From Chitinophaga pinensis (lineage in GTDB: Bacteria > Bacteroidota > Bacteroidia > NS11-12g > UBA955), in contig CAMDUE010000003.1 of the NCBI GenBank assembly GCA_945877575.1, positions 88,174 through 152,173 on the forward strand: a DNA stretch of 64,000 nucleotides. The letters are read 5' to 3'. Below, in pieces: positions 15,311 through 40,978 of this stretch (position 1 is its first letter; every line of letters starts with the position of its first letter). Both the position numbers and the translations under genes were made by a program. A model generated the notes under the pieces. It saw only the letters and a list, made by a program, of their open reading frames with translations. It did no database searches and was not told the origin of the DNA.

Positions 15311-16579
15311 TCAACTAATCATTCCAACAGCGATGGTCTCATTCGTGGTCTGATCGATTACTATCAATGAACCCGTCTTACGGTTTCTGTGATAGGAGTC
15401 TACAAATAAATCTTGACTAACTCGAATTTTAGCCTTGAAAATATCATTAATTCCAATGAATTTATCCTCTAAATTGCGGGTTAAGGTAGTGATTTCCATT
15501 TTATAAATAATTTCCTCAATTTTCCCAAATACTTCAGAAGTTCCTTGGCGAATGATATACTTGGTATTCGGATTCAGTGGTTTATCGTGAAACCAGCAGG
15601 CTGCAATCTCAAATTCTTTACTCGGTTCTGGTTGATTATTGACTTTTGCAATGATATTTCCTCGAGAAATATCAATATCATCGTTTAGAGTCATAGACAC
15701 CGACATGGGAGCAAAGCATTCTATTAATGATCTATCTCCCAAGAAAATTTCTTTTATTGTAGATCGTTTACCACTGGGCAATACAACAATTTCTTCCCCA
15801 ACCCGAAAAATTCCTCCATCAATGCGTCCAGCGTAACCCCGGAAATCATGATAAGCGTCTGAATGCGGCCTTATCACCGTTTGAATGGGGAACCGTGCAT
15901 CAGTATGATTTTCATCGCTTCCGATGTGAATGGTTTCTAAATTGTGCATCAATGTGGCACCTTGATACCAATCCATATTATTAGAACGATTTACTACATT
16001 ATCACCCTTTAAAGCAGAAATTGGTATGAATCGAATATCTTTTACCTCTAATTTCGAAGCGAACTCCTCGTATACTTTTACAATATTTTGGTATACTTCC
16101 TCAGAAAAACTAACCAAATCCATCTTGTTAATACAAACGATGATATGAGGAATTTGCAACAAACTTGCTATATATGAATGCCTGTAAGTCTGCTCAATTA
16201 CACCTTTCCTTGCATCTATCAAAATCAAAGCTACATTGGCTGTTGATGCACCCGTAACCATATTTCGTGTATATTGAATGTGCCCTGGAGTATCAGCAAT
16301 GATGAATTTCCGTTTTGGAGTGGCGAAATACCGGTAGGCTACATCTATGGTAATACCTTGTTCACGTTCATCTTTTAGTCCATCAGTCAGTAAACTTAAA
16401 TCAATATGATCCAATCCTTTTCGTTCAGAACTACCCTTTACTTGTTCTAATTGATCTTCAAAAATGGCCTTAGAATCGTATAACAATCTACCAATCAACG
16501 TACTTTTTCCATCGTCTACACTACCAGCAGTGGTGAAGCGAAGAAGCTCCATATCCAAATAATTATTGCTTTGTTCCAT
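15311..16579 (-). CDS. cysN: sulfate adenylyltransferase subunit 1 (GTPase)
   Basis: The GTPase P-loop is GSVDDGKSTLIGRL. The 422 aa length and a 1 nt overlap with cysD upstream fit. Confidence 0.9.
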   Translation of the reverse strand: MEQSNNYLDMELLRFTTAGSVDDGKSTLIGRLLYDSKAIFEDQLEQVKGSSERKGLDHIDLSLLTDGLKDEREQGITIDVAYRYFATPKRKFIIADTPGHIQYTRNMVTGASTANVALILIDARKGVIEQTYRHSYIASLLQIPHIIVCINKMDLVSFSEEVYQNIVKVYEEFASKLEVKDIRFIPISALKGDNVVNRSNNMDWYQGATLMHNLETIHIGSDENHTDARFPIQTVIRPHSDAYHDFRGYAGRIDGGIFRVGEEIVVLPSGKRSTIKEIFLGDRSLIECFAPMSVSMTLNDDIDISRGNIIAKVNNQPEPSKEFEIAACWFHDKPLNPNTKYIIRQGTSEVFGKIEEIIYKMEITTLTRNLEDKFIGINDIFKAKIRVSQDLFVDSYHRNRKTGSLIVIDQTTNETIAVGMIS

Positions 16580-17484
16580 TAAAAATATCCTTGCTTTTTA
16601 CGGTCCTCCATAGCAGTTTCTGATCTTTTATCATCAGCGCGAGAGCCGCGTTCAGTTGTGCGAGTAGTGGCCACTTCTTGAATGATTTTTTCTAAGGTAT
16701 CTGCTTCACTTTCAACAGCACCAGTAATAGGCATATCACCGCAAGTACGGTAGCGAATGCGTTTGGTTATAAGTATTTCAGTGGGTTTCAAATTCACGAA
16801 AGGACCATTGGAAATCCATGTATCGTTTCGCCAAAAAACCACCCGGTCATGAGCAAAATAAAGCGAGGGAAGGCTAATATTTTCAGCTAAAATGTATTGC
16901 CAAACATCCATCTCAGTCCAATTTGAAATAGGGAATACACGGAAATGCTCACCCATATTCTTGCGCCCATTGAACAGGTTCCATAATTCAGGTCTTTGGT
17001 TCTTGGGATTCCACTGCCCAAAATCATCACGATGCGAAAAAAAACGTTCCTTAGCACGGGCTTTTTCTTCATCCCTGCGAGCACCACCCATAGCAGCATC
17101 GAACCGGTACTTCTCGATGGTGTCTAACAACGTAGTAGTTTGTAGAGCATTTCTACTAGCATTTAGTCCAGTTTCTTCTTGTACTCTACCATTGTCGATT
17201 GACTCCTGTACCGAGCCAACAATAAGTTTTACACCCAATTCTTTCACCAAATTATCTCTATATTGAATGGTTTCAGGGAAATTATGACCTGTATCAATAT
17301 GTACTAATGGAAAAGGTATTTTAGCAGGCCAAAATGCTTTTTTAGCTAAATGAGTTACTAATATGCTGTCTTTACCCCCAGAAAACAAAATTGCTGGATT
17401 CTGGAATTGTGCATATACCTCACGAATAACAAAAATGGCTTCCGCCTCTAACTCTTGTAAATGACTCAATAAATATTTCATCAA
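16579..17484 (-). CDS. cysD: sulfate adenylyltransferase subunit 2
   Basis: The PAPS-reductase-like N-terminus is FSGGKDS. The 301 aa length and its place in the cysDN operon fit. Confidence 0.9.
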   Translation of the reverse strand: MMKYLLSHLQELEAEAIFVIREVYAQFQNPAILFSGGKDSILVTHLAKKAFWPAKIPFPLVHIDTGHNFPETIQYRDNLVKELGVKLIVGSVQESIDNGRVQEETGLNASRNALQTTTLLDTIEKYRFDAAMGGARRDEEKARAKERFFSHRDDFGQWNPKNQRPELWNLFNGRKNMGEHFRVFPISNWTEMDVWQYILAENISLPSLYFAHDRVVFWRNDTWISNGPFVNLKPTEILITKRIRYRTCGDMPITGAVESEADTLEKIIQEVATTRTTERGSRADDKRSETAMEDRKKQGYF

Positions 17485-17491
17485 ATGATCA

Positions 17492-18328
17492 TTAAAAACT
17501 AAACTTTGGAACTTCTCTTAACAGTATTCTAACACTTTCATCAACCGTAAGTTCAGAGGTTTTAATGTGAACTTTGGGCATTCTAGGAATTTCAAATGGG
17601 CTATCTATACCCGTAAATTGAGTTATTTCTCCATTTCTCGCTTTTTGGTAAAGCCCTTTAACATCACGTTTTTCACAAACTTCTAAAGGTGTATCAATAA
17701 AAACCTCACAAAAATTTTGCTCACCAATTATCTCAAGAGCTAATTTTCGGTCGCTCTCAAAAGGAGAGATGAAAGCAGTAATTACCACAAATCCCGAATC
17801 CAAAAACAATTTTGCCACCTCGGAAACACGTCGAATATTTTCATTTCTACTCAAATCTGAAAAATCAAGATCTTGATTCAACCCTTTTCTCATATTGTCC
17901 CCGTCTAATACCATAACTTGATACCCTTTAAGAAATAACTCATTTTGAAATGCGTTCGCAATGGTTGATTTCCCAGAACCACTCAAACCTGTCATCCAAA
18001 AAACTTTAGGTTCATGTTTATTCTTCCTAATTCTTTGTTCCAAAGACAATTGATATGCTTGTTTTTCTACATGCAATTTCTGATTTCCAATAGAATCATT
18101 GGTTTTCCATTTTCTATTTTTCAACCTCCCAATCGAAATATAGTTATACCAAACTCGTTCGTGCAAATAATAGAGCACCATTTTCGTGAAAACTTCAAAA
18201 CCGCCTATTGCTAACCCAATTTTAATTGAACCAGTAACAATGTATGAAACAATCATTGTGTCAATGGTGCCAACAATTCTCCATGAAATAGTCTTTAAAA
18301 TATGTCGTAATTGATCGCTATTTTTCAT
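17492..18328 (-). CDS. cysC: adenylyl-sulfate (APS) kinase with an N-terminal DUF2061-like membrane domain
   Basis: The C-terminal ~200 aa carry the P-loop GLSGSGKST and APS kinase motifs. The N-terminal ~75 aa are hydrophobic (ISWRIVGTIDTMIVSYIVTG...YYLHERVW) and resemble DUF2061. Confidence 0.85.
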   Translation of the reverse strand: MKNSDQLRHILKTISWRIVGTIDTMIVSYIVTGSIKIGLAIGGFEVFTKMVLYYLHERVWYNYISIGRLKNRKWKTNDSIGNQKLHVEKQAYQLSLEQRIRKNKHEPKVFWMTGLSGSGKSTIANAFQNELFLKGYQVMVLDGDNMRKGLNQDLDFSDLSRNENIRRVSEVAKLFLDSGFVVITAFISPFESDRKLALEIIGEQNFCEVFIDTPLEVCEKRDVKGLYQKARNGEITQFTGIDSPFEIPRMPKVHIKTSELTVDESVRILLREVPKFSF

Positions 18329-19104
18329 GATTTTCGCTTTACTAAAAAATGAGGATTTATTAAATCAACTTTGTTGTATACCAAGGGGAGCTGTGTTTCA
18401 AAATTTATGATTTCACAATTCGCATAATTAAGAATGGCATGAGCAGCTGCTGTATCCCATTCCATTGTAGGCCCTAATCTCGGATAAACTTCAGCCTTAC
18501 CCTCAGCCACTAAACAAATTTTCAAACTACTACCCATTGATACTATTTCTACATCACCATACTCCTGTCGCATTTGAGAAATGAATGCTTCCGTTTTCTC
18601 GTTATTGTGTGACCTGGAAGCAACTATCCTAAAGGATCTTGTATTCTCTTCGCTTTCATTTAATTGATGTTCTTCAAATTCCCTAAATTGATTCAACTCA
18701 AAAATTTGAAAACCGTGTTCGGGTGAACCACAATACATTCTATTAAGACAAGGAGCAAAAACAACTCCTCGCAAAGGAATTCCATTTTCCAAATAGGCAA
18801 TGTTTACAGTAAATTCCCCATTCTTTCGCAAAAACTCTTTGGTTCCATCTAAGGGGTCAATTAAAAAAAATCGGTCCCAATTTTGCCTTAATTCAAATGC
18901 TATTGATTTGTTTTCTTCTGAAATTATCGGAATACTTGGAAAGTATTTTTTAAGCTGAGATATTATAATAGTATTTGATCTCTGATCAGCCATTGTCAAA
19001 GGAGAACCATCAAGTTTATACTCTAATCCAACGTTCAATTGGTTGTATATACTCAATATCTCCTCGCCTGCTTCCAAAGAAATATTCATTAATTTATCAA
19101 TCAC
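18325..19104 (-). CDS. cysQ: 3'(2'),5'-bisphosphate nucleotidase
   Basis: Inositol-monophosphatase-family motifs are present (ISEEN, DPLDGTKEF). It overlaps cysC by 4 nt. Confidence 0.8.
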   Translation of the reverse strand: MIDKLMNISLEAGEEILSIYNQLNVGLEYKLDGSPLTMADQRSNTIIISQLKKYFPSIPIISEENKSIAFELRQNWDRFFLIDPLDGTKEFLRKNGEFTVNIAYLENGIPLRGVVFAPCLNRMYCGSPEHGFQIFELNQFREFEEHQLNESEENTRSFRIVASRSHNNEKTEAFISQMRQEYGDVEIVSMGSSLKICLVAEGKAEVYPRLGPTMEWDTAAAHAILNYANCEIINFETQLPLVYNKVDLINPHFLVKRKS

Positions 19105-19193
19105 TCAGCAAATATAAAACAAAACCCTATTAACCCATCGTTTTGATAGGTTTTTCATTTACAAATACCGTCTAAAAAAACTAATTTTGCCGA

Positions 19194-19604
19194 GTGCTTA
19201 CGAAAAAGGCTAAATACGCATTAAACGCTTTGGTGTATCTATCGAATAATGCTACAGAAAACATACCCATTACAGCTTTTAAAATTGCTCAAGACAATGA
19301 TATTTCACAGAAATTTCTTGAATCCATTTTGATAGAAATGAAAAAAGTTGGTTTACTCGGAAGCATGCACGGTAAGGGTGGAGGATATTATTTACGAAGA
19401 TCTCCAAATGAAATTCAATTGGTTGAAATTATTCGAATGTTCGATGGAGCTGTTGGCCTTATACCCTGTGTTACCCACCAATTTTTTGAGCCATGCAAGG
19501 AATGTAAAGACATTGAGACCTGTAAAATTAGATTTACTTTCAAAGAATTGAGAGATCTTAATGTTGAATTTTTGAAAAAAAGAACTCTAAAAGACCTATT
19601 GTAA
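19194..19604 (+). CDS. Rrf2-family transcriptional regulator
   Basis: The N-terminal winged HTH (KAKYALNALVYL...) and the 136 aa length fit. It is transcribed divergently from the cys operon. Confidence 0.8.
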   Translation: MLTKKAKYALNALVYLSNNATENIPITAFKIAQDNDISQKFLESILIEMKKVGLLGSMHGKGGGYYLRRSPNEIQLVEIIRMFDGAVGLIPCVTHQFFEPCKECKDIETCKIRFTFKELRDLNVEFLKKRTLKDLL

Positions 19605-19609
19605 GATGT

Positions 19610-20968
19610 TTAATGATTCACAGATTGAATTTTAGCTTTATTCTCTAACTCATCGTAGATCGTTCTTGCCTTGGTAAGTAATATTTTGTTCCTGATTTGT
19701 ATTTCTTTTTTGTCTTTGTAAAACTTCTGTAGCCCATCACAAGAAACAACTTCATTTGTATTCTTCGAAATAGTACTCAATATTTTTTCCGGAGATGATA
19801 AGAACTCTTCGTAGGAGAGAAAAGTGCATGCCTCAATGTTCAATGCATAGGAATAGTATTCAATCCAACATTCAACCCAATATTCAATATCGAAAGGCGT
19901 ATAACTCGACTTACCAAAATCTGAATTGAATAAAAACGGCTTGTGATTTAGACCAAACTCATGATGACCTAACCAATTCATATATTGCAGTGCAAATGGA
20001 TCATCCTTTTGAATTCTACAAAAATTCAAATGTTGTGATAATAAACTATAGGAATGTTCCAATGGATCTCTGTAAAGTATAAAAACATGAGTATCTCGGT
20101 GAAATTCCATTATACTTTTCAATCTGAGTATCTGATTATTATTTTTAGCTAGGTATGTTTTTCCCTTTGATATACTTACTTGATAAGAATAATAATGTTG
20201 CAATAATTCCTCTGACAATTCATGCTTCATTAAACCGTGTGGTTGTATGTATGAATCATTCAAAACAACTTTAAAGAAATACTCCTCCAATGCTTCAACA
20301 CTTGCCAAACCAACTTTAATACCATCATTGTGCGCTCTTTGCTTTAATTCAATTTTACTTGGCTTGTAAATTCTACTCCAAATTCTAGGGTACAATAAAA
20401 ATGGCATATTTGAATAATTCAAACTAGTAAAATTTCCATTCTTATTCAACAAATCAACCAAAGCCGTGGTTCCTGAACGAGCTAATCCGGTTATAATAAT
20501 TGACTTATGCGTAACAATATCGGTATTTGTAACAAACCTAATTTGCTTCATTAGCATCCACTTACCCAGATTATAATGATTCAATATTATTCTGTGAAGC
20601 AACTGAGATAAAAAAGAATAATCTGACTTATTAGTAATAAATCTTGAAACTATAAAAAAAGGCAAAGTAGATCCTAAAAAAAATAAAAAAACATGAAGTA
20701 AAGAAGAATTTTTTGAATCGAAATAATGAAGGTAAAATAAAATTGGAATTAATATAAAAACTACACAAAATATGAAAACAACTATATCCTTTACCGCTCT
20801 CTTCAAGTTTTGTTGAAGAGCAACAATAAATTCCTCTTCTTTTTCTTGAATCAATAATGTATCCAACAAACTTGTTGCTGACAATGCCAATCTTTCAAAT
20901 GGCTTTTTTGAAATAATTACAATAACTGAAGTTAAAAATCCAAATAAAAACTGAAGTGAATAACTCAC
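19610..20968 (-). CDS. membrane-anchored sulfotransferase
   Basis: About 120 aa of N-terminal TM region, then the 5'-PSB motif GLARSGTT. Confidence 0.65.
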   Translation of the reverse strand: MSYSLQFLFGFLTSVIVIISKKPFERLALSATSLLDTLLIQEKEEEFIVALQQNLKRAVKDIVVFIFCVVFILIPILFYLHYFDSKNSSLLHVFLFFLGSTLPFFIVSRFITNKSDYSFLSQLLHRIILNHYNLGKWMLMKQIRFVTNTDIVTHKSIIITGLARSGTTALVDLLNKNGNFTSLNYSNMPFLLYPRIWSRIYKPSKIELKQRAHNDGIKVGLASVEALEEYFFKVVLNDSYIQPHGLMKHELSEELLQHYYSYQVSISKGKTYLAKNNNQILRLKSIMEFHRDTHVFILYRDPLEHSYSLLSQHLNFCRIQKDDPFALQYMNWLGHHEFGLNHKPFLFNSDFGKSSYTPFDIEYWVECWIEYYSYALNIEACTFLSYEEFLSSPEKILSTISKNTNEVVSCDGLQKFYKDKKEIQIRNKILLTKARTIYDELENKAKIQSVNH

Positions 20969-20985
20969 AGGTAACTAACTAAAAT

Positions 20986-21123
20986 TTACTTTTTTCTTTT
21001 ATGGGTGATTTTATACCAAACAAAATAACCAAAAGAAAAAATTATCAATCCTAAGATAATGATTAAAAGTACTATCGCGCCGACACCTAATCCTGGTCCT
21101 ATATATAAAAAAGTATTCGTCAT
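20986..21123 (-). CDS. possible small hydrophobic peptide (45 aa) at the head of the polysaccharide operon
   Basis: Translated by hand: MTNTFLYIGPGLGVGAIVLLIIILGLIIFSFGYFVWYKITHKRKK. It has one TM helix plus a basic tail. It falls below the ORF-track cutoff. Confidence 0.3.
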   Translation of the reverse strand: MTNTFLYIGPGLGVGAIVLLIIILGLIIFSFGYFVWYKITHKRKK

Positions 21124-21176
21124 AATTTATTTCAGTTCTTTACTTTCGAGATTCTTAAAATGCCTGATTAATTTCA

Positions 21177-22397
21177 TTAAAAGGGTAATTCATGATATAA
21201 TCTAGGCCAATGTGTTCGTTCATTTACATTATTCAGCACACCGCGATACATTAATTCTCCGCTCTTCTTAAAATAGTAAACAACCCCATTATTTTGACTC
21301 TCAACAAAAATACTTCCATCGGGGCAAATTTCATGTAACCCTTGTGTCTTTGTAAAAATTCCTTGTTTTGAAATACTGTCTTTAATTGGGTAAGAGAAAC
21401 TCCGCGAATTAAAATTGTAAACACAAATATTTGATAGGTTAAATTTGCCTTTCAGTACATGATATTTACCCCAAATATTGGGATCCACATTATTGTTAAA
21501 AACCGATATTTGACTATCACTAAGAATATCAACATCGTGTTGCATTGCAAATGGACCACAAATCACGGATAAAATAGAATCAACATTGGGCCTGTAATGT
21601 ACAATGGATGATCGATGACGGAGACTTAAAAATAAATCGCCTTTTTTCCAATGTTTTGCGTCACTTTTTACAACTTCAACATCGTTCAGATGATAAGGAT
21701 CATTACCTTTGGGTGTAGATGTATTCGAATTCCCTAAGAGCCAATAATTATTTGATTCAAGGAATAATTTCGACAACGGTGAACTTCTGAAGACAGTTTT
21801 ACCTGTGTTAATGTCTAATGCAACCACATAATTTTCCCAAGCTCTTCGGTTAACCAATTCTCTGGTACAAACCCAAATGGTTTGTTCATCGACGTTAAAA
21901 GTATGATGAAAACGATGTTCATTATTGGACCATATGATATTCGAATTTGAATCTACCCGAAAAAAACAATCCAATCCTTCAAAATAAAAAACACAAGATT
22001 TATCCTTTAGGATATAGGGGGATCTGGGTTCAGAATGCGAAAATTTCCTATTTCGTTTGTTCGTTACTTGATTTCTTAACATTGTGTTTTCATCCATGGA
22101 CCAGCTGTAAATCACATTCTTATTACCCAAAGCCATTAACTCAATAACCCATTTATCTTCAACAAATCGCGCATTTGTATAATACAACTTTTCATTGTTC
22201 AAATTATTGACAAAACTATTCGTATCTAAATTTATCAGTCGAGAGTTGTTTGACTTTAAGCCATTTCTAATTTCATTGTAATAACCGAAAAACGTTTTAA
22301 GAGTTCTACTCTTGGTATTTAAAGCTATGACACCAATTATATTAACAAAAGTAACAAGTAGAAATAAAATTGAGATTAAGTAAAGGAATTTCTTCAT
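21177..22397 (-). CDS. hypothetical membrane-anchored protein (possibly a beta-propeller or arylsulfotransferase-like; uncertain)
   Basis: An N-terminal TM anchor is present. I could not verify any diagnostic motif. Confidence 0.4.
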   Translation of the reverse strand: MKKFLYLISILFLLVTFVNIIGVIALNTKSRTLKTFFGYYNEIRNGLKSNNSRLINLDTNSFVNNLNNEKLYYTNARFVEDKWVIELMALGNKNVIYSWSMDENTMLRNQVTNKRNRKFSHSEPRSPYILKDKSCVFYFEGLDCFFRVDSNSNIIWSNNEHRFHHTFNVDEQTIWVCTRELVNRRAWENYVVALDINTGKTVFRSSPLSKLFLESNNYWLLGNSNTSTPKGNDPYHLNDVEVVKSDAKHWKKGDLFLSLRHRSSIVHYRPNVDSILSVICGPFAMQHDVDILSDSQISVFNNNVDPNIWGKYHVLKGKFNLSNICVYNFNSRSFSYPIKDSISKQGIFTKTQGLHEICPDGSIFVESQNNGVVYYFKKSGELMYRGVLNNVNERTHWPRLYHELPF

Positions 22398-22556: not shown

Positions 22557-23786
22557 TTAAGATACCGCCAATGGAATCTCTTCCATATTTACATAAATTG
22601 GTTTGGCTTTGGGCAATTCCTGTAAAGGACCATAAAATAGATTGACAGCTTTTAAGATATTATGATAAATAATATCACTACAGAATCTATTCTCAAACAA
22701 ACTTCTACTATTATTGGACATTACTTGATATTCTTCAGAAGTGCATTTTTCAAAATCAATCAAACTTTGCGCCAAGCAAATATTGCTTTTCTCACTCAAT
22801 ATAATACCATTATTAAAAGAGCACGTCTCTTTACTTCCCTTGTTATCGGTTGTTATTATTGGTAATCCGAATGCCAATGATTCAATTAAAATTCTTGGTA
22901 CCCCTTCCGGATAATTTGTAGGCAAAACTGAAACCTGACTTAATTTCAACAATGGCCTGACATCATTGATGTAGCCTAAAAAATGTATGGATTTTATACC
23001 CTCCGTTTGATCATTAAATCTTGGGATAATTGATTTATTTGGAAACCATCCAGCGATGATTAACTCCCAGTTTTTTAGGTGACCCAATCTTTTTGCTGTT
23101 TTAAATCCTTCAATTAACTCAAAAACCCCCTTCTCTTCCATTATTCTGCCACAATACAAAAAATAGTTAGACTGAGTACTTAAGTTATATTCTTGATAAA
23201 AATCTTTAGGTATGCTGTAATTTAAATTGAATCTAACTTCATCAACACCACTTCCGTCAGTTTGCATAATCTTCGCACGTTTACACCAACTTTGAATGAA
23301 TAAAAAATCCTCGAAATTCTGAACCACTATTAAGTCCGCACGGTCAATTACATAAATATACAATCGGAGAATTGCCAATTCATAAGAGGTTGGCTTTTTA
23401 TTATTTGAAAAAAATCTTCCTAACCCTGCTAATGTGACACAAATAAAATCAACCCCAAGTAACCTTCCAATTAATACACCTAAGAAATTTGGCACAAACT
23501 TATACGTAAAAATCATATCGGGTTTGAACCTGATTATTTCAAAGATTAATTGAAAAATAAGAACGGGCAATTTCCAAAAGTCACTCAATTTCATAATCTT
23601 AACAAGAAAACCTATAGAAAGATTCAACCTTTTCACTTCTTGTTTAAGTTCACCATTTGGCACCAATGCCCTTGAAGTAAAATTGTATTTATCTTTTAAA
23701 AAGTGAATAAAATTTACACGCGAATTCAAGAAGTCTTCGTCATGATTGGTGTAAATAAGTGCTTTCCTGTTCAAACTATTTTTCAT
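22557..23786 (-). CDS. glycosyltransferase family 4
   Basis: The C-terminal GT-B motif is EGVPRILIESLAFGLPIITTDNKGSKE. Confidence 0.7.
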   Translation of the reverse strand: MKNSLNRKALIYTNHDEDFLNSRVNFIHFLKDKYNFTSRALVPNGELKQEVKRLNLSIGFLVKIMKLSDFWKLPVLIFQLIFEIIRFKPDMIFTYKFVPNFLGVLIGRLLGVDFICVTLAGLGRFFSNNKKPTSYELAILRLYIYVIDRADLIVVQNFEDFLFIQSWCKRAKIMQTDGSGVDEVRFNLNYSIPKDFYQEYNLSTQSNYFLYCGRIMEEKGVFELIEGFKTAKRLGHLKNWELIIAGWFPNKSIIPRFNDQTEGIKSIHFLGYINDVRPLLKLSQVSVLPTNYPEGVPRILIESLAFGLPIITTDNKGSKETCSFNNGIILSEKSNICLAQSLIDFEKCTSEEYQVMSNNSRSLFENRFCSDIIYHNILKAVNLFYGPLQELPKAKPIYVNMEEIPLAVS

Positions 23787-23793
23787 ATTCCAA

Positions 23794-32972: not shown

Positions 32973-33777
32973 TTTTTATTATCTCCGTATTGAATTTTCT
33001 AATAGGACCCATTAACAAGTAGGCAAGCAACCATTCATTTCTATGAAACCATCTGTAATCGTAAACAATTCTGTCGATATCAGAAGTTAATCTGGAATTA
33101 TTACCGGTTAAAATATGATGAACAGAATCAGCTTTTTTGGGGTTGATAATATTTAAGGGATTATTTAATCCATTCACCTTATTGAGAAACATAAAAGTCG
33201 GCTCAATGGCCCATTTTTCATAACTCATTAAAATAGAATTAAGTTGGTTATCATTTAAGAATTTTATAAGCCTTTGGTGTTGTTGCCACCAAAAAAAGTG
33301 ATGTCTAAAACCTGGTAATTTTCTACGGACGCCTTTTTTCAGTGCATTATCAATTTGAGAAACCGTATAATTTCGAACATCTTTTACTAAATGTATTACT
33401 CGTAAATCTACATTCTCAAATTCCATCCATGGGGAAATACCTTTGATGTATTTAGATGAATCAACAATTGTAAATTCCGGATATTGATTCATGCAAAATT
33501 TCACCAATTCCGAATATGCATTCTGCAATCCATGATTCAAATTCCAAATTGAAAATATCTCGCTCCAAAAATTACAGGATGCAGCAGATTGACCACAAGA
33601 ACAAATCTCCTTCATCAGTACATCTTTATCCGATAAATATTTTAGCCAGGTGAGATGTATCTCACCTAATGACAAAAAGCCCTTCTCTTTGCATAAATAT
33701 CGACTCAAAATCGTAGTCCCAGAATGACTTGATGAAGCAATATAGCAAACTCTTACAGGTTCATTTTGTTTTCCCAT
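32959..33777 (-). CDS. sulfotransferase
   Basis: The 5'-PSB motif is SSSHSGTTIL. Confidence 0.65.
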   Translation of the reverse strand: MGKQNEPVRVCYIASSSHSGTTILSRYLCKEKGFLSLGEIHLTWLKYLSDKDVLMKEICSCGQSAASCNFWSEIFSIWNLNHGLQNAYSELVKFCMNQYPEFTIVDSSKYIKGISPWMEFENVDLRVIHLVKDVRNYTVSQIDNALKKGVRRKLPGFRHHFFWWQQHQRLIKFLNDNQLNSILMSYEKWAIEPTFMFLNKVNGLNNPLNIINPKKADSVHHILTGNNSRLTSDIDRIVYDYRWFHRNEWLLAYLLMGPIRKFNTEIIKNEET

Positions 33778-34766
33778 ATTGATACTGCTTTTTTAACTGA
33801 ATATTCATTTCTCACATGCATTTGAGCATTAAACCCTATTTCATTCCTTAGTTTGGTGTTGTGAATCAATAAACGAATTTGACTGATCCAGTCGTCAGAC
33901 TTATCACACAACATGCCTGTAACACCGTTGTTAATATACGCGTTCATCCCCAATATGTTACTAGCAACTGTTGGTACACCGCAGGCTCCATATTCTAGAG
34001 CTTTAAAACCGCACTTGTACAAATTGAAATTTTGCTCCAACAAGGGATAGATACCAATATCAAATTTACCAATCCAAGAACTAACCTCTTGAGTGTCTGA
34101 CCAATTCAAATCTTCAATCATAGCAAACTTATCGGTTAATTTTAAACTTTCAATCAAAGAAAACAATTTATTGCAGTTTTTCACACCAATAAAACAAAAT
34201 TGCAAGGGTGTTTCTAAATAATGCTTGGTCAATGGTGTAACAATCTCATTTACAAACCAAATTAACTCCTCCTCATAATGCGATCCATTGCCTATCCATC
34301 CAACAATCACTTTTTTATCATTCAATTTTAAATTGTACTGACCATATAAATCAACATCAATGCAGGTTGGAATTAAAAAACTATTTTTATTATATAAAAG
34401 ACAATAATTTAACAGATTGATATTCCCACAAGATATTCCATGTACCGATTCAGAAAACCTTTGGAAATTTTTTAAAGTAACCTCTGAAAATGACCTCGAA
34501 GGAAAATCATCAATGTCTAAATAAATCGATTTCCCTAAATACTTCAAATACCACAACAAATATAAATGCCACCTAGAAAATACCTTTTGGAAAATAATTA
34601 TTTGATAATTGTGAACTGTGAAAAATAAAATTAATATGTCAAGTGGATTGTTTGACACTTTAATTTTAGTTTGAAGTTTGTTTATTCTCGGGAATACCCA
34701 AAAAACCCTGGCTCTACTGCTGGCTTTATTAATATCGCCAACGGAAACAACCAATAATTTTTTCAT
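33753..34766 (-). CDS. glycosyltransferase (GT-B, family 4-like)
   Basis: The C-terminal region is GACGVPTVASNILGMNAYINNGVTG. Confidence 0.6.
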   Translation of the reverse strand: MKKLLVVSVGDINKASSRARVFWVFPRINKLQTKIKVSNNPLDILILFFTVHNYQIIIFQKVFSRWHLYLLWYLKYLGKSIYLDIDDFPSRSFSEVTLKNFQRFSESVHGISCGNINLLNYCLLYNKNSFLIPTCIDVDLYGQYNLKLNDKKVIVGWIGNGSHYEEELIWFVNEIVTPLTKHYLETPLQFCFIGVKNCNKLFSLIESLKLTDKFAMIEDLNWSDTQEVSSWIGKFDIGIYPLLEQNFNLYKCGFKALEYGACGVPTVASNILGMNAYINNGVTGMLCDKSDDWISQIRLLIHNTKLRNEIGFNAQMHVRNEYSVKKAVSIWENKMNL

Positions 34767-35860
34767 TGAAAATTCAATAGAATCTCGTTCAACATAGTTC
34801 TTGCATTCTCCTCTGAGTAGCTGTTCAAAATCTTCGATCTAGAATCACTTATTTTGAAAAAATAATCTTTCTCTCTCAAAGCTTTATAATTTGCAATGAA
34901 CCTTAACGTTTTATAAATCCTTGAATAATCAAAATTATTTACTTCGAAAAAACTCTGTTTATCAAGAAATTCTCTACCTCCGCCTGCTGAAGACCCTACA
35001 ATAATGTTTCCGCAAGCAATTGCTTCAGCCAATGGCAATCCAAATCCTTCGAATTCCGAAAAACTAAGAAAAACATGTGAACTAAGCAGAATCGAGAACA
35101 CATCTTCTTGTGGTAATCCATCAATCTTTATAAATTCAAAATCATCTGTTTTTACATTTTTATGATTCAAATAATTCAATAATGCACCGAAGAAATTATT
35201 ACCTCGTCTAGGCATATAAGCTATTTTTAATTTACTTGAATGTGATTTTTTTTCTAATAGTTCTTCATCTGCAACTTGCAAATAGAGTTTAGGATTTAAA
35301 ATCACTGTAAATCTATGTAAATTCTTGTTTTCTGTCTGTAATAATGGATTATTTGAACCTATCAAATTGTACATTATCTGAAAATTCAACTGAGAAAAGC
35401 AAATCAAATGAACCTTTTCATTTTTAAACAACCTTAATAATCTATCAATTAATTGATTTTCTTTATTCAATAAAAAATAGGAATTTTGAATTGCAAACCA
35501 AACATTGAATTCTTCCTCAATAATTTTTAACGTTTGATTGGATAGCCAAGTTTCTGGAAAAATGAGTAAATCTTCGTTTTTATTAATTTCAATTACATCA
35601 GAGTAAATAATGGAATACACAAATTGCTTTAGTCTGCTCTTAATTGACTTTTGATACAAATAATCCAATTTGTTAGGGAAGTATTTTACAGTGGTTTGAT
35701 TGCTAAACCAACTTAATTTAAATCTGGGATTTTTATGAACAACGCATGCCTCAATATTCATTGAATTAAGAGTATCAGACATCCAATAAATCATTTTGCG
35801 CCCGCCTGAAGGAGCCTCTAAATCATGACAAAAAAACAATACTCGTTTGAATCTAAACAT
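34763..35860 (-). CDS. glycosyltransferase family 4
   Basis: EFEGFGLPLAEAIACGNIIV. Confidence 0.7.
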   Translation of the reverse strand: MFRFKRVLFFCHDLEAPSGGRKMIYWMSDTLNSMNIEACVVHKNPRFKLSWFSNQTTVKYFPNKLDYLYQKSIKSRLKQFVYSIIYSDVIEINKNEDLLIFPETWLSNQTLKIIEEEFNVWFAIQNSYFLLNKENQLIDRLLRLFKNEKVHLICFSQLNFQIMYNLIGSNNPLLQTENKNLHRFTVILNPKLYLQVADEELLEKKSHSSKLKIAYMPRRGNNFFGALLNYLNHKNVKTDDFEFIKIDGLPQEDVFSILLSSHVFLSFSEFEGFGLPLAEAIACGNIIVGSSAGGGREFLDKQSFFEVNNFDYSRIYKTLRFIANYKALREKDYFFKISDSRSKILNSYSEENARTMLNEILLNFQ

Positions 35861-35866
35861 AAATTC

Positions 35867-36676
35867 TCAACTTCCCGAATTTTGAAAATAATCGGTTAAT
35901 TTAGAAATAATTTCAGCTTTTGATGAATTTCCTAAAAACCCATTATTGATATAATACTTATTGAACCAATCAAAATTAAAATCGACTTTTGTATTCAAGA
36001 AAGTCTCCAATTTAGGAATATAATTAATTGCAGTGTACTTAGAATCAAATAAATTATCATAATCAATGATTAATAAGGATTCACTGCCAAACTTTGAAAC
36101 AATATTATCAATTTGCCATTGATATTGGCCCAACTTCAGTGCATTAAAAACAGGTCTCGAACTAAATTCTACCTCACAAAATCTCTCTAATGAAAAACTC
36201 TCATTTTCAGAGAGAAACTTAAATACCTTTTTATTGTACTCGGTAGGGTATTTTTTAAGAATATATTGAACTTTAGAGGAGAAATAATAGTTATATGCTA
36301 AAAAAAATCTTTCAATTGGATCTCGTTTAATGAATACAAAAATTTTCTTGGCTTCTAATGAAGCTATGCGATCTAAATTTAATCCTTCTGTGCAATAATC
36401 CCAACTTAAGTCTATATTCACATCAACCAAATTACTTTTCTTTGTTGATTTGAATGATTTTTTATAAAAATCTAAGGATTTGCTTTCAAATAAACCACTG
36501 TTGAAGAAATTAGCTTCACGGCCGAGGTTGCTATAATTCAAATTTAAACTTTTACTTAAACTTTGTGTAAATTCAAACCCGCCACAATGTTGACCACCCA
36601 CAACGAACAAAAATGCACCTTCATCCACCAATTTTAGTTTGTTTTTTGATATAAGTTTTTGTATAAGCATTCCCAA
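35867..36676 (-). CDS. sulfotransferase
   Basis: The 3'-PB motif is IKRDPIERFFLAY. The N-terminal P-loop-like stretch is VVGGQHCGG. Confidence 0.55.
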   Translation of the reverse strand: MGMLIQKLISKNKLKLVDEGAFLFVVGGQHCGGFEFTQSLSKSLNLNYSNLGREANFFNSGLFESKSLDFYKKSFKSTKKSNLVDVNIDLSWDYCTEGLNLDRIASLEAKKIFVFIKRDPIERFFLAYNYYFSSKVQYILKKYPTEYNKKVFKFLSENESFSLERFCEVEFSSRPVFNALKLGQYQWQIDNIVSKFGSESLLIIDYDNLFDSKYTAINYIPKLETFLNTKVDFNFDWFNKYYINNGFLGNSSKAEIISKLTDYFQNSGS

Positions 36677-36743: not shown

Positions 36744-38414
36744 CTACAACTCTGTGACTCTATCGGCAACTTCATCAAACTCGTTATCGTGTGTGATAAC
36801 AATCACAAATTTGTCTTTCTTGAGTTTGTTGATTTCGTTCAAAACTAGTTTGGTTGAATCAGTATCTAATTGGCTCGATGGCTCATCAAAAATCCAAACA
36901 TCAGAATCAGTCAAAAGACTCCTCATCAAATTAACTCGCTGAAGCTCTCCTGCACTCAATTGAGACTCTAGCGGGGGTGTTTCAGACAATTGAAACAGAT
37001 TCTGAATGTTTAAGTTAGAGGAAATTGAATTAATGCCAAACTCATTCTTTGCATCTGAATGAAAACAGCTGTGATAGTATTTCAATTCTCCAGAAAACAG
37101 AAAATACCGACCTCCAGAATAACTAGTTGCCATTCTTAGGGAGTTAAAATCATCTTCTGAAGGTTGAATACCATCAAACAAAATATGCCCGTTTACAGGT
37201 TGTATTAACCCAACAAACAACCTAATTAAAGTAGATTTCCCCTTACCACTTTGTCCTTTGATTATATGTAACTCCCCTCGATTAAATGTTAAATTAATGT
37301 TATGCAGGATGATTTTGTTTGAATTCGGATAACTAAAACAAACATCCTCGAACACAATTTTTTCAAATTGGAAAACTGTATTTCTAACTTCGGTTGGTTT
37401 CTTATGACTAGCATGAGTTTCCAAAAAATCTGTAATCAACTTGACTGAACCGAATGACATTAAAAAGCTATTCCAACTGTTTTGTATGATCACAGAATTC
37501 CCCATGATTCTATACAACAGCAATAAAGGTAAAATTGTACTTTTAATCTCGAGACCGAAATACACCACTTCTATAAAAACAACAAACAAGACTACCGAAA
37601 GAGATAAAAATTCTCTTGAACTCATTGCGAAAGATTGCAATCTGCCCATCTTTTCGTATTCAACCTCTACATCTTTGGAAACATCGTTAAACTCTTTATT
37701 AGGGTCTGTAAAATTACCGTTGATTTTAAAATACTCCCAATTATAAATAAAGTTGCTTATTGTTTTTGAAAGCCTTCCTTGTAGTTGGGCAATATTTGCA
37801 GATGAATTTTTAGTCAGTGAATAAATTTTTCGATAAATAATAAACACGAAAAAAGAACATATCAAAATCAATAAAGTGAATTTGGTATAAAGCAAGATTG
37901 CCAGAATAAAATATGAGGCGACTTGAATTACTCCGCTCCAAGACTTGAAATAAGAATCAAAAGCACCGAATAATTTTTGTACCTCATTATTCAATAAAGA
38001 ATACAGAGAATCGCTGCTCAAATCATGAAAAGTAGAAAATTCTAAATTAAAAACCGAAGTATAAATTCTTTGTCTAATTGATTTGATAAAATAGGAACGC
38101 ATTTGTATTCGTATGAAATTCAAACTAAAACGCATAATTGCTTTTAATAAAAAAACAACAACCACAAAAACTATTGCCTCTCTTAACTCTAAATTAAAAT
38201 CCAAATTGAACCTGGATAATAATCCAACACTGCTGTTACCAAAAGAATAGTGTAAATCATTTCCATTACTGTTTAAAAGGGGAACTATTATTCCAATACC
38301 AAAACCATCAAAAATTGCAATTAGTAATGACAACAGTAAAATAATGAACACTGATTTTCGCCTAGAATATTTAACTAGAATATTCGGCTTAAATAGAGAC
38401 TTTAAATTTATCAT
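36744..38414 (-). CDS. ABC exporter with fused TMD and NBD (MsbA/PglK/Wzk-like), a candidate flippase for the lipid-linked oligosaccharide
   Basis: The N-terminal half has 6 TM helices. Walker A is GQSGKGKST. The variant signature motif is LSAGELQR. Walker B is IFDEPSSQLD. Confidence 0.75.
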   Translation of the reverse strand: MINLKSLFKPNILVKYSRRKSVFIILLLSLLIAIFDGFGIGIIVPLLNSNGNDLHYSFGNSSVGLLSRFNLDFNLELREAIVFVVVVFLLKAIMRFSLNFIRIQMRSYFIKSIRQRIYTSVFNLEFSTFHDLSSDSLYSLLNNEVQKLFGAFDSYFKSWSGVIQVASYFILAILLYTKFTLLILICSFFVFIIYRKIYSLTKNSSANIAQLQGRLSKTISNFIYNWEYFKINGNFTDPNKEFNDVSKDVEVEYEKMGRLQSFAMSSREFLSLSVVLFVVFIEVVYFGLEIKSTILPLLLLYRIMGNSVIIQNSWNSFLMSFGSVKLITDFLETHASHKKPTEVRNTVFQFEKIVFEDVCFSYPNSNKIILHNINLTFNRGELHIIKGQSGKGKSTLIRLFVGLIQPVNGHILFDGIQPSEDDFNSLRMATSYSGGRYFLFSGELKYYHSCFHSDAKNEFGINSISSNLNIQNLFQLSETPPLESQLSAGELQRVNLMRSLLTDSDVWIFDEPSSQLDTDSTKLVLNEINKLKKDKFVIVITHDNEFDEVADRVTEL

Positions 38415-40978
38415 TATTTAAATGTAAAGAAGGCTCTAAATGGCATTACAACTATATGCACCAAGAATGAAAGAGTTTTATTAATGACTGTTGGATTTTT
38501 ATTATTATCGCTTCCATTTGAGTTATAAGCGAGGTATTTAGAATCATAATTATAGTTGTACGCCCCATAGTCATGAAAATAGTAATTCCCTAATGTGTAA
38601 TAGGCACCACTGTAATTTGAGTAAGCCTTTAAATTACCGTATCCATAATCATAACCATAACCATAACCAGCAATACCACCTTTGACCCCGTTTAACAAGC
38701 AGGCGATGTTGTTTGATTTGCTTAATTTCTTGAATGTCAAAGCAATTTCCTTGACTTTATTCAACTCGGAAACACCAAAGCGAACCACAAAAATACTTAA
38801 ATCAGCAAAACGAGAAACCTCAAGAGAGTCACTCACCAAACCTATTGGTGGACAATCAAAAATGATAATATCAAACTTACTTTTTAAGTCATCCATAACT
38901 TCCAACATTCGGTCTGAAGCTAATAGTTCTAGTGGATTTGGCGGGATAGGACCTGAGGAAATAATAGACAAATTTTCATACCCTACATCTTTAATCACTT
39001 GATCAACAGTTATTTGTGAATTTGAAAGCAAATTACTCAGTCCTATTTCACGTTTGGATATGTTGAAGTTCCTACTAATGCCTGGTTTCCGTAAGTCACC
39101 CTCAATAACTAGCGTTTTCTTACCTGAAATAGCATAAACAGCTCCTAAATTTAAACTGCAAAATGACTTACCCTCTGTTGAAATTGAACTGGTAATGAGT
39201 ATGACTTTCGTATTGATACTTTCTTCAGTGATGAATCCTATGTTGGTTCTAATACTTCTGAATTGTTCTGCAACAATATTTCTTGAATTATCTTGTTCAA
39301 TAACCAACGAAGATTTATCAGATGTTTCAGTGTATATGATGGAACCTAAAATTGGAATATTTAATACTTCACGTAATTCACCTACATTATAAACCTTATT
39401 TCTCAAGATGCTTTTGACCACCAAGATTATCGTTACCAAAAGAAATCCAATAAACGTGAAAAGTATTTGTGTAAGTTTTACCTGAGGAACAACTAGTTTC
39501 TCTCCGGTAGTATTTTCTAAAATCCTGACATTAGATAAGGTTCCAGCCATTTGTATTGCCGACTCCTCTCTTTTTTGGAGAAGATATTGATACAGTGAGT
39601 TTAAAACATTTTGTTGCCTCGTTAAATTTAGCAAAGTCCTTTCCTTTTCAGGAATTGACCTAATTAATTTGTTATAATTAGTATTGGTTCCAGACCGGTC
39701 TTGTAAAATTCCTTCTTTTATTTTATATAGATTTTCCAAGGAATTATCTATTAGATTATCTATGGCCGTTCTAACTAAGTTTAACTCCGATTTAACAACA
39801 CCTAACTGATTGTTTTTATTTCCCACCAAACTATTAAGCTTGTTGTAGTTTAATTTCAATTCATTAAATCGATCAAAATAGGGTTGTATCTGCCTCATAT
39901 TACCCTCGCTCAGACCCGTTAATCCTGGGGCAATTTGATCTGATGCAACACCACGCAAAATGTAACTTTTGATTTGTTTTAAAACAATTATTTCAAATTC
40001 AAATTCCCAAATTTTATTATCACTCAATCTCATTTTATCTAAGAAATACTCAGACTCTTTAGATAATCTTGAAATATCATTAGTACTTTTAAATACTTCA
40101 ATTCTTCTTTCTATTGTGTCTAAATCTCTTCCCAGAAAATCTAGCCTGCGATCAATAAATTCTACAGTAAATTTCGCTTTTTTCCGTTTCTCAGATTGAG
40201 TGTAGCTTTGATAGCTTTCAACCAGAGAATTCAACATTTTTTCCGAATACCGTGGTGAAACTGATTCTGCAAATAAATGAATAATAGAGCTCCTTTTATC
40301 TTTCTCTATCCTGACATTTTCTAAAAATTGCTTTGCCGCTTTCCTATTGTCTAAAATCTCAATCCAATTGTTGTTCTTGAATTGCATTTTTAAAAACTCA
40401 TCAACAATTTTATCTCCTTTTTTGAAATTATAATTTCGCCGAAAAATTAACTTATTTCCATCAATTTCAGTAATAACTTCATATTTAACTATTTTTCCTT
40501 TTACACGAAGTCTTCCATCATTCAACAGTTTGAAAGCAAACTTTGAATTGGATATTTTATCTTTATTGATTACGTCTATATAAAAAGGCAATCCCTCTAA
40601 AGGTATATTGACTTTTTTCATAACACCTTCTGACTTGATAGTAAAAAAATAACCACATTTCTCTACAGCTCCTTTGATTACTTGAAATCCCTTAATCACT
40701 CCAATTTCATCATCAATGAAGGTAGGAGATTTACCAGCCACCTGTTGCAATATTTGATCACTTGAAGTATTGGACTCATCTTTCAACAAAAGTCCAGTTT
40801 CAGTTTCAAATATCGATTGAGTGTAATTGATTTTTAGGTTACCAAGGAATAGAAATAACAGAATAAAGAATGCATATACCGGCCAAAATGGTAAAAAATC
40901 TCTTAAAACCGTATGATATATTTTTAATGCACTTTTATCGTCACTATTCTGAATATTATTTTGTTGTAATTGATCCAC
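38414..40978 (-). CDS. polysaccharide co-polymerase / tyrosine autokinase (Wzc/EpsB-type, PCP-2a)
   Basis: The Wzz-like periplasmic domain lies between two TM segments. The Walker A is ISTEGKSF, the Walker A' DxD motif is LVIEGDLRKP, and the Walker B is IIIFDCPP. The C-terminal tail is tyrosine-rich (GYGYGYDYGYG...YNYNYDSKY). Confidence 0.8.
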   Translation of the reverse strand: MDQLQQNNIQNSDDKSALKIYHTVLRDFLPFWPVYAFFILLFLFLGNLKINYTQSIFETETGLLLKDESNTSSDQILQQVAGKSPTFIDDEIGVIKGFQVIKGAVEKCGYFFTIKSEGVMKKVNIPLEGLPFYIDVINKDKISNSKFAFKLLNDGRLRVKGKIVKYEVITEIDGNKLIFRRNYNFKKGDKIVDEFLKMQFKNNNWIEILDNRKAAKQFLENVRIEKDKRSSIIHLFAESVSPRYSEKMLNSLVESYQSYTQSEKRKKAKFTVEFIDRRLDFLGRDLDTIERRIEVFKSTNDISRLSKESEYFLDKMRLSDNKIWEFEFEIIVLKQIKSYILRGVASDQIAPGLTGLSEGNMRQIQPYFDRFNELKLNYNKLNSLVGNKNNQLGVVKSELNLVRTAIDNLIDNSLENLYKIKEGILQDRSGTNTNYNKLIRSIPEKERTLLNLTRQQNVLNSLYQYLLQKREESAIQMAGTLSNVRILENTTGEKLVVPQVKLTQILFTFIGFLLVTIILVVKSILRNKVYNVGELREVLNIPILGSIIYTETSDKSSLVIEQDNSRNIVAEQFRSIRTNIGFITEESINTKVILITSSISTEGKSFCSLNLGAVYAISGKKTLVIEGDLRKPGISRNFNISKREIGLSNLLSNSQITVDQVIKDVGYENLSIISSGPIPPNPLELLASDRMLEVMDDLKSKFDIIIFDCPPIGLVSDSLEVSRFADLSIFVVRFGVSELNKVKEIALTFKKLSKSNNIACLLNGVKGGIAGYGYGYDYGYGNLKAYSNYSGAYYTLGNYYFHDYGAYNYNYDSKYLAYNSNGSDNNKNPTVINKTLSFLVHIVVMPFRAFFTFK

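Follow-up and report, generated by a model that had tools for sequence, protein, structure and literature searches.

A sulfotransferase-rich polysaccharide locus in a Bacteroidia genome, with an adjoining PAPS operon and a conserved Cpz4-like propeller–microprotein–sulfotransferase module

Sulfated polysaccharides are common in animals and algae, and in bacteria they have seldom been documented beyond cyanobacteria and a few marine Proteobacteria. The DNA considered here, a stretch of 64,000 nucleotides from the genome of a freshwater Bacteroidia bacterium (assembly GCA_945877575.1, contig CAMDUE010000003.1; the whole stretch is called the window), carries at positions 15311-40978 a locus that, as its genes are read here, probably directs the synthesis of a multiply sulfated surface or extracellular heteropolysaccharide. 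Where a polysaccharide cluster holds sulfotransferases together with genes for 3'-phosphoadenosine-5'-phosphosulfate (PAPS), the pairing has been described as a hallmark of pathways to sulfated polysaccharides (PMC11641403). Such a combination is found here: the cysQCDN genes adjoin a polysaccharide operon, with the gene of an Rrf2-family regulator alone in between.

In the case of synechan, the proven xss cluster of Synechocystis PCC 6803 encodes eight glycosyltransferases, two sulfotransferases, Wzx, Wzy and a polysaccharide co-polymerase (PCP), and the gene of the outer-membrane polysaccharide exporter (OPX) lies elsewhere (PMC8205485). The present locus shares with xss the probable Wzy-dependent type, the eight glycosyltransferases, the sulfotransferases, the PCP, an exporter outside the cluster and the setting in a mobile or variable element. 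However, xss encodes just two sulfotransferases, relies on a Wzx, brings two-component regulators of its own and lacks a PAPS operon, whereas the present locus belongs to the Bacteroidota and possesses six genes of the sulfotransferase fold, a Cpz4-like propeller, an ABC protein for Wzx, adjoining cysQCDN genes and no priming transferase. The capsule locus of Vibrio sp. KMM 8419 is similar in holding second copies of cysN, cysD and cysC and several sulfotransferases within a polysaccharide locus (PMC11641403), but it utilizes Kps-type, ABC-transporter-dependent export, has three sulfotransferases and nucleotide-sugar genes, and contains no Wzy, Wzc or enzyme of the arylsulfate sulfotransferase (ASST) type. 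The kind of locus is therefore known, and what is new relative to both is the number and diversity of the sulfotransferases, the ABC protein in place of Wzx, the phylum and the Cpz4-like module.

This module is a co-oriented, conserved set of a propeller gene (21177-22397), a microprotein gene (20986-21123) and the sulfotransferase gene ST_A (19610-20968), and three described systems resemble it in part. In caprazamycin biosynthesis, sulfation takes place in two steps: a PAPS-dependent sulfotransferase sulfates a phenol, from which the PAPS-independent Cpz4 transfers the sulfate onward, with a preference for sugar hydroxyls as acceptors (PMC4257720, PMC13426309). As with Cpz8/Cpz6/Cpz4, a PAPS-dependent sulfotransferase is encoded together with a PAPS-independent Arylsulfotran-type propeller, and Cpz4 (PDB 9kf4, 9kf6) is the closest solved structure to the latter. 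However, the caprazamycin system, from a Streptomyces, obtains its carrier phenol from a type III polyketide synthase and sulfates an antibiotic, whereas the module consists wholly of membrane-bound parts, its propeller has a predicted periplasmic location and a Tyr-bearing microprotein stands in the place of the carrier; no polyketide synthase is encoded in the window or among the neighbours of the module elsewhere. The Cpz proteins of Streptomyces are soluble. In DltB-DltX-DltD, PatA-PatB and OatA, a membrane microprotein or protein tail carries an invariant extracytoplasmic Tyr, placed between an activated donor in the cytoplasm and a transferase that modifies an envelope polymer outside it (PMC12148441). 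These systems transfer acyl groups, utilize a funnel of the membrane-bound O-acyltransferase (MBOAT) or acyltransferase-3 (AT3) type and carry FxYxxF near the extracellular C-terminus, whereas the module would transfer a sulfuryl group and places Y[IL]GPGxGxG on the N-terminal side, before the transmembrane helix, and no MBOAT or AT3 protein is encoded in the window. By this analogy, the microprotein resembles DltX in logic only, not in membership. The assT-dsbL-dsbI system of uropathogenic E. coli likewise has a periplasmic, PAPS-independent β-propeller, which works by a His-based ping-pong mechanism (PMC13426309); nevertheless, that ASST belongs to Pfam PF05935 and is partnered by Dsb oxidoreductases, where the module has a PAPS sulfotransferase and a microprotein.

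Pfam and NCBIfam scans of the open reading frames (ORFs) of the window define a near-gapless minus-strand operon of 19 genes at 19610-40978, with the coordinates and gene content given in the initial annotation. Neighbouring genes overlap by up to 41 bases or are separated by at most 159. Read in the direction of transcription, starting at 40978, the order is Wzc, ABC protein, ST_F, GT4, GT4, ST_E, ST_D, GT4, ST_C and GT4, followed by the Wzy-like gene, ST_B, GT2, GT2, GT4, GT4, the 406-aa propeller, a 45-aa ORF and ST_A (GT2 and GT4 denote glycosyltransferase families), so that sulfotransferase and glycosyltransferase genes alternate. In the region 15000-23000, there are 0 intrinsic-terminator-like sites, compared with 4.2 in shuffled sequences; a sigma-70 promoter scan is uninformative for Bacteroidota. 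The order Wzc-ABC-ST_F-GT-ST_E-ST_D-GT-ST_C-GT-Wzy-ST_B-GT2-GT2-GT4 is shared with two other lineages from freshwater metagenomes (L003 and L007) at a protein identity of approximately 48-60%, the sole missing gene being one GT4 (34763..35860). The same gene order at about 50% identity in two lineages argues for selection on the whole set. The alternation of glycosyltransferases and sulfotransferases, the adjoining cys operon and the order kept in these two lineages bear out the earlier view of a polysaccharide assembly locus with a dedicated PAPS supply.

The PAPS-supply genes and their putative regulator are as follows.

15311..16579, minus strand: cysN, large subunit of sulfate adenylyltransferase (TIGR02034 543 bits, cut-off 336; GTP_EFTU)
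16579..17484, minus strand: cysD, small subunit of sulfate adenylyltransferase (NF003587 454 bits, cut-off 195; TIGR02039 422 bits, cut-off 397)
17492..18328, minus strand: cysC, adenosine 5'-phosphosulfate (APS) kinase with an N-terminal DUF2061 membrane domain (APS_kinase 211.6 bits; DUF2061 83 bits; TIGR00455 241 bits, cut-off 139)
18325..19104, minus strand: cysQ, 3'(2'),5'-bisphosphate nucleotidase, which removes 3'-phosphoadenosine-5'-phosphate (PAP) (TIGR01331 281.6 bits, cut-off 228.8)
19194..19604, plus strand: Rrf2-family regulator (Rrf2 102 bits; TIGR00738 96.9 bits, cut-off 73.3)

All five genes, already named in the initial annotation, score above their NCBIfam cut-offs, and the CymR and IscR models score below theirs on the regulator gene. 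This gene is divergent from cysQ, with a spacer of 90 bp, and convergent with the large operon. Through its N-terminal DUF2061 domain, CysC may hold PAPS synthesis at the membrane, close to where the glycan is assembled.

Five of the six sulfotransferase genes lie among the glycosyltransferase genes or next to the ABC gene; the sixth, ST_A, belongs to the module. Two sites were used to judge PAPS binding, namely the 5'-phosphosulfate-binding (5'-PSB) loop K/R-x-G-T/S-T and the 3'-phosphate-binding (3'-PB) motif R...S.

26722..27690, minus strand: ST_B, PAPS-type sulfotransferase (Sulfotransfer_3 39.1 bits, passing the gathering score; motifs KRSGST and VRNP..NS)
30048..30863, minus strand: ST_C, sulfotransferase of a CSC...C...W subfamily (Sulfotransfer_3 17.3 bits, below the cut-off; hhalign to the ST_E profile 98.3%, E 1.3e-14)
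32052..32972, minus strand: ST_D, similar to heparan sulfate 3-O-sulfotransferases (HS 3-OSTs) and N-deacetylase/N-sulfotransferases (Sulfotransfer_1 50.7 bits, passing the gathering score; 134.7 bits to the A2 profile; catalytic motif KE..FF kept)
32959..33777, minus strand: ST_E, sulfotransferase of the same CSC...C...W subfamily (no Pfam match itself; assigned through its homologues and the A6 profile)
35867..36676, minus strand: ST_F, sulfotransferase fold with degenerate PAPS motifs (AlphaFold2 model of pLDDT 89; best Foldseek matches HS 3-OSTs, TM-score ~0.62)

A sulfotransferase fold or family match exists in all six proteins (ST_A to ST_F), in agreement with the six sulfotransferases first proposed; the PAPS-binding motifs, however, hold in five, being intact in ST_A, ST_B and ST_D and typical of their subfamily in ST_C and ST_E, whereas ST_F lacks the Lys, the Thr-Thr and the Ser. 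Similarly, ST_A, ST_B and ST_D pass the Sulfotransfer_1/3 models of Pfam directly, but ST_C, ST_E and ST_F do not. Single-sequence phmmer searches of ST_F, ST_E and the ST_A domain against the PDB returned chance matches only, and profiles were needed. For ST_E, PF13469 or PF00685 is found in 8 of 11 database homologues, and the A6 profile, built from nine homologues and ST_E, matches the CurM sulfotransferase (1.2e-11) and tyrosylprotein sulfotransferases (TPSTs) including TPST1 (1e-8) in the PDB. The alignment of ST_C to the ST_E profile spans the region from the PSB loop to the 3'-PB motif. In both proteins the PSB loop reads HSG[ST]T, with a His in place of Arg/Lys, as is typical for that subfamily. 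An invariant insertion, CSCG...C..W, follows the PSB loop in the ST_C/ST_E subfamily and could form a metal-binding or disulfide knuckle; we know of no description of a subfamily with such an insertion.

ST_F has no Pfam match of its own, and its homologues and predicted structure place it among the sulfotransferases; similarity to HS 3-OSTs, as in ST_D and ST_F, is general among carbohydrate sulfotransferases. Three close relatives were found among 5.8 billion proteins and 94 remote ones in an exhaustive profile search, and 43 of 46 aligned members (ST_F and 45 homologues) match Sulfotransfer_1/3. An alignment scan of 185,579 species genomes gave no relative, which is a weak sign of rarity since the scan needs exact peptide words. 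The 5'-site of ST_F is GGQHCGGFEF against a family consensus of GxQKCGTTSL, and the 3'-site is RDPIERFFLAY against RDPVxRAxSAY; two orthologues (P0002 and P0003) keep the substitutions, with GGQ[HF]CGGFEF and RDPIERF[FL]LAY. In the 5'-phosphosulfate loop, ST_F and its orthologues have thus lost the Lys and the Thr-Thr, and in the 3'-phosphate motif the Ser; the glutamate of KE..FF is kept. The lost residues bind the cofactor in sulfotransferase structures, and their loss makes ST_F more likely a non-catalytic paralogue or an enzyme of altered chemistry, that is, a possible pseudo-enzyme.

The glycosyltransferases, the polymerase, the exporter and the co-polymerase occupy the remainder of the operon.

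22557..23786, minus strand: GT4 glycosyltransferase, 409 aa (Glycos_transf_1 82 bits)
23794..24948, minus strand: GT4 glycosyltransferase, 384 aa (Glycos_transf_1 94.5 bits)
24952..25932, minus strand: GT2 glycosyltransferase, 326 aa (Glycos_transf_2 106.6 bits)
25929..26762, minus strand: GT2 glycosyltransferase, 277 aa (Glycos_transf_2 62.4 bits)
27699..28991, minus strand: Wzy-like polymerase, 430 aa (Wzy_C 30.0 bits, cut-off 31.7; at least 8 hydrophobic segments in a transmembrane scan)
28966..30051, minus strand: GT4 glycosyltransferase, 361 aa (Glycos_transf_1 91.6 bits; Glyco_transf_4)
30850..32055, minus strand: GT4 glycosyltransferase, 401 aa (Glycos_transf_1 71.4 bits)
33753..34766, minus strand: GT4 glycosyltransferase, 337 aa (Glyco_trans_1_4 55 bits)
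34763..35860, minus strand: GT4 glycosyltransferase, 365 aa, the one absent from L003 and L007 (Glycos_transf_1 34.8 bits)
36744..38414, minus strand: ABC exporter with fused transmembrane and nucleotide-binding domains, HepA/MsbA/PglK-like (ABC_membrane and ABC_tran)
38414..40978, minus strand: Wzc-type co-polymerase and tyrosine autokinase of the PCP-2a/bacterial tyrosine kinase type (GNVR, AAA_31; TIGR01007 160.6 bits, cut-off 108; Tyr-rich C-terminal tail)

These assignments agree with the initial annotation in the eight glycosyltransferases (six GT4 and two GT2), in the Wzc autokinase, with TIGR01007 above its cut-off, in the ABC exporter, with both domains in one protein, and in the Wzy-like polymerase, which scores slightly under the Pfam cut-off. 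The absence of an initiating transferase, Wzx and Wza from the window also stands: Bac_transf, Glycos_transf_4, Polysacc_synt and Poly_export have no match in ORFs of at least 90 aa in the 64 kb, and the initiating transferase may be encoded elsewhere. The best NCBIfam models for the ABC protein are HepA (167.7 bits), MsbA (134 bits) and PglK (127 bits), all far below their cut-offs, for which reason its role as a candidate flippase in place of Wzx is an inference. Furthermore, the locus contains no nucleotide-sugar genes, and the HS 3-OST similarity of ST_D and ST_F is of the general kind noted above, which leaves the label "glycosaminoglycan-like or fucoidan-like" that was first attached to the product without basis.

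Read from the functions of these families, the pathway would run as follows. CysD/CysN and the membrane-tethered CysC would make PAPS, CysQ would clear the inhibitory PAP and Rrf2 probably controls the cys operon. The eight glycosyltransferases would build a repeat unit of up to about 8-9 sugars on a lipid carrier, after priming by a transferase whose gene lies elsewhere. The soluble, motif-intact ST_B, ST_C, ST_D and ST_E would act on this lipid-linked unit in the cytoplasm, sulfating different hydroxyls, with ST_F more likely a non-catalytic partner. The ABC protein would flip the unit instead of Wzx, the Wzy-like protein would polymerise it, Wzc would set the chain length and an outer-membrane exporter encoded elsewhere would complete the export. 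In addition, the periplasm-facing propeller, the Tyr microprotein and the membrane-anchored ST_A would add a sulfation step outside the cytoplasm.

The same genes might serve another sulfated glycoconjugate, such as a protein O-glycan or a lipo-oligosaccharide, or a product that is lightly sulfated because several of the sulfotransferases are inactive; we hold this to be very improbable. The phosphoglycosyltransferase, Wzx and Wza missing from the window, the ST_F without cofactor-binding residues and the His, rather than Arg/Lys, in the PSB loop of ST_C and ST_E would fit such a product. However, the assembly of high-molecular-weight capsule or exopolysaccharide is where a Wzc autokinase and a Wzy-like polymerase are typically found, the His is typical of a subfamily matching PF13469 and PF00685, and five motif-intact sulfotransferases are conserved across lineages.

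Several points weigh against a multiply sulfated heteropolysaccharide as the product. Its sulfation is a prediction from genes, the host organism is uncultured, and the absence of the initiating transferase, Wzx and Wza from the window means that the pathway cannot be closed. The Wzy_C score falls just under the Pfam threshold, and that of the ABC exporter far under all named NCBIfam cut-offs. Moreover, the contigs with related clusters (L003, L004 and L007) end before showing any linkage to a cys operon, and the 159 bp gap and the independent travel of the module elsewhere leave the module linked to the polymer by adjacency only.

If the heteropolysaccharide reading holds, the locus bears on an environmental observation: granular sludge and anammox granules have been found to contain sulfated glycosaminoglycan-like polymers, the producing community members not being identified (PMC7356697). 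With 5-6 sulfotransferases and a PAPS supply of its own, this conserved Bacteroidia locus offers a concrete candidate for such a producer, and it is also a source of polysaccharide sulfotransferases with differing specificities for enzymatic sulfation.

The base composition and a close relative indicate the genomic setting. The window itself is identical to a contig from a metagenome in ENA. The locus has a G+C content of 0.29-0.35, while the first 4 kb of the window and its right flank from 42001 onward are both at 0.40-0.42. A metagenome-assembled genome (MAG) contig of 94% nucleotide identity (L009, CAYPBJ010000016.1) runs collinear with the window between 58793 and 42128 and departs from it directly past the M48 peptidase gene; at this junction it therefore lacks the locus. 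These sequence features make 15311-40978 most likely a strain-variable, low-G+C island, a pattern usual for strain-specific surface-polysaccharide islands. A tblastx comparison of the L009 tail with the window found no match apart from the M48 gene and gives no left edge for the island.

L009 is titled "uncultured Rhizobium sp.", a label that we judge to be wrong because the contig is 94% identical to a Bacteroidia window and encodes a protein with a type IX secretion system (T9SS) sorting domain; such domains are present in the window too, and a cluster mate of at least 90% identity is named Bacteroidia bacterium. To the left of the cys operon, low G+C (0.31-0.34) extends over 7653-15196, where a TonB-dependent-receptor-like gene, a 308-aa ORF without family and the genes of two proteins of ~660 aa are found; both of the latter carry T9SS C-terminal sorting domains and no other Pfam domain. 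These genes may share the island, their products being, for instance, enzymes secreted to act on the polymer. On the right, a DUF3050/HamA haem-oxygenase-like gene (41305-42108) lies on the same strand as Wzc, 327 bp upstream of it and on the island side of the end of the L009 collinearity (~42128).

The three genes at the downstream end of the operon form the module introduced above, which the initial annotation had missed as a separate conserved unit found in many other glycan loci.

21177..22397, minus strand: Cpz4-like Arylsulfotran_2 β-propeller with an N-terminal signal-anchor, 406 aa, first gene of the module (PF14269 106.5 bits)
20986..21123, minus strand: 45-aa microprotein with a YIGPGLGVG motif, one transmembrane helix and a basic tail, second gene of the module (conserved motif ORF)
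19610..20968, minus strand: ST_A, with three N-terminal transmembrane segments and a cytoplasmic PAPS-type domain, third gene of the module (Sulfotransfer_3 33.5 bits, passing the gathering score; GLARSGTT and YRDP..S)

The propeller had been described as a membrane protein of unknown function, which the Arylsulfotran_2 score overturns: it is a Cpz4-like propeller and a seventh sulfate-related enzyme. Its AlphaFold2 model (pLDDT 89) matches Cpz4 best in Foldseek (9kf6 and 9kf4, E 1e-11, TM-score 0.62), with a clear margin over generic propellers, at a sequence identity of only ~15%. Neither E. coli ASST nor Cpz4 was reached at E <= 0.01 with the propeller-family profile against the PDB, and the fold search alone found Cpz4. 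FAMQHDV of the propeller aligns with FAWQHDV of Cpz4. H164, H165, H236 and Q286-H287-D288 are invariant among 47 members of the propeller family, and the last of these, with a candidate for the catalytic His, aligns with QHD of Cpz4. The N side is more positive in 41 of 46 family members, placing the propeller, by prediction, outside in the periplasm.

To survey the module, 80 metagenome loci were fetched with the propeller alignment. Between the propeller and ST_A genes, a small ORF with Y[ILVM]GPGxGxG, a transmembrane helix and a basic tail occurs in 63 of the 71 loci with room for it, and the Tyr is present in all 63 motifs, though the search pattern permitted F and W. Of 66 motif matches in 505 kb, 63 sit at this position, and phmmer matched the microprotein itself in two loci (L010 and L090). 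The 45-aa ORF, once taken for a leader-like peptide, is hence a conserved microprotein gene, for which Pfam and NCBIfam hold no family. Its motif, helix and basic tail also recall an exosortase-type sorting signal; this was set aside, there being no sortase-like gene alongside. The Tyr microprotein is the only conserved phenol-bearing candidate for a carrier.

An ST_A homologue exists in 51 of the 80 loci, almost always directly downstream of the propeller gene on the same strand. Among loci with at least 1.6 kb of room, peptide and sulfotransferase are both present in 38, the peptide alone in 0, the sulfotransferase alone in 2 and neither in 5; L019, one of the two with the sulfotransferase alone, has a variant peptide outside the search pattern. 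In the commoner class of loci (gap ~540 nt, mostly marine contig names), the peptide has a signal-peptide-like extension ending in S-F-A before the Tyr, and a gene of its own, for 120 aa, encodes the three-helix membrane part of ST_A. A faint match of this membrane part to a prenyltransferase model (NCBIfam 23 bits against a cut-off of 278) was dismissed as hydrophobic noise. The best PDB match of the ST_A family profile is TPST1 (6.5e-7), fragmentary, and the charge bias of the sequences predicts the basic tail of the microprotein and the ST domain to be inside. A limited literature search found no publication on this propeller–microprotein–ST_A arrangement.

Our proposed reading is that the module is an add-on, sulfating the glycan, or another envelope acceptor, outside the cytoplasm. 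Alternatively, it could be independent of the adjacent polysaccharide operon, lying beside the cys genes as a consumer of PAPS and acting on a lipopolysaccharide O-chain, a glycolipid or a small phenolic metabolite. We consider such independence somewhat unlikely. Its attraction is that phmmer finds homologues of the glycosyltransferases, the ABC protein or the Cys proteins in only 1-3 of the 80 loci, and that the 159 bp before the propeller gene are the largest gap of the operon. However, the module is co-oriented with the operon, no terminator-like site falls in the region scanned, this gap included, and surface-glycan neighbours appear again in other genomes. In 12 long loci, the neighbours comprise Epimerase (8), Polysacc_synt_2 (6), GT2 (4), DegT (2), Bac_transf (2), Wzy_C (2) and APS_kinase (2); such neighbours leave a glycan as the best guess for the acceptor. 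The module thus accompanies, in dozens of metagenome loci that are mostly marine by contig names, mostly genes for surface glycans.

How the add-on would obtain its sulfate is more speculative. The module might work as a transmembrane two-step sulfuryl relay, in which ST_A transfers the group from cytoplasmic PAPS to the Tyr of a membrane microprotein of 45-70 aa, and the propeller takes it up as a sulfo-His and passes it to a sugar hydroxyl of the exported glycan; we regard this as unlikely at present. Equally doubtful is the analogy built on it, by which the relay would be the sulfation counterpart of DltB-DltX-DltD and PatA-PatB acylation and a membrane version of the Cpz8-to-Cpz4 transfer. 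Several observations would suit a relay. Cpz4, the closest solved structure to the propeller, is itself fed with phenol sulfates by a PAPS-dependent partner and prefers sugar hydroxyls (PMC4257720, PMC13426309), and Tyr residues of microproteins or C-terminal tails are proven transmembrane carriers in envelope acylation (PMC12148441). The three genes co-occur tightly (38 loci with both partners, 0 with the peptide only), and the Tyr is invariant in 63 of 63 peptides. In the long peptides, S-F-A|Y resembles a signal-peptidase site that would leave the Tyr as the first periplasm-facing residue, the charge bias favours an outside location for the propeller and an inside one for the ST domain, and the best PDB matches of the ST_A profile are TPSTs. 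However, the Tyr is predicted on the membrane face opposite the PAPS-dependent domain, and the membrane part has just three helices and no sign of an MBOAT/AT3-like funnel. The acidic residues that surround the Tyr of known TPST substrates are absent, the TPST similarity is fragmentary and common to ST_E too, and the catalytic His of the propeller is putative.

The natural substrates of periplasmic ASST-type enzymes are largely unidentified (PMC13426309). A relay, if true, would provide a natural donor for such enzymes and a new route for modifying envelope polymers, by which Bacteroidota could sulfate surface glycans after export.

Further genes of the window lie outside the locus. At 42916-45225, a protein of 769 aa combines HMG-CoA reductase with an aminoglycoside/choline-kinase-like (APH) domain at the C-terminus, a fusion that is unusual for an enzyme of the mevalonate pathway; a genome scan with this fusion matched one MAG, L009. 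At 49626-51539, a 637-aa DUF3419 protein is encoded, whose cluster mates are named S-adenosylmethionine-diacylglycerol 3-amino-3-carboxypropyl transferase (BtaA-like); the gene is flanked by those of a PEP-utilising enzyme and an AMP-binding enzyme and hints at betaine-lipid synthesis in this Bacteroidia lineage. Finally, 53165-53949 holds an antitoxin-like gene (DUF2281/DUF6364) and, next to it, the gene of a PIN-domain toxin, and directly after the toxin gene lies a truncated GT2 fragment (53946-54557), the match of which begins at profile position 49.

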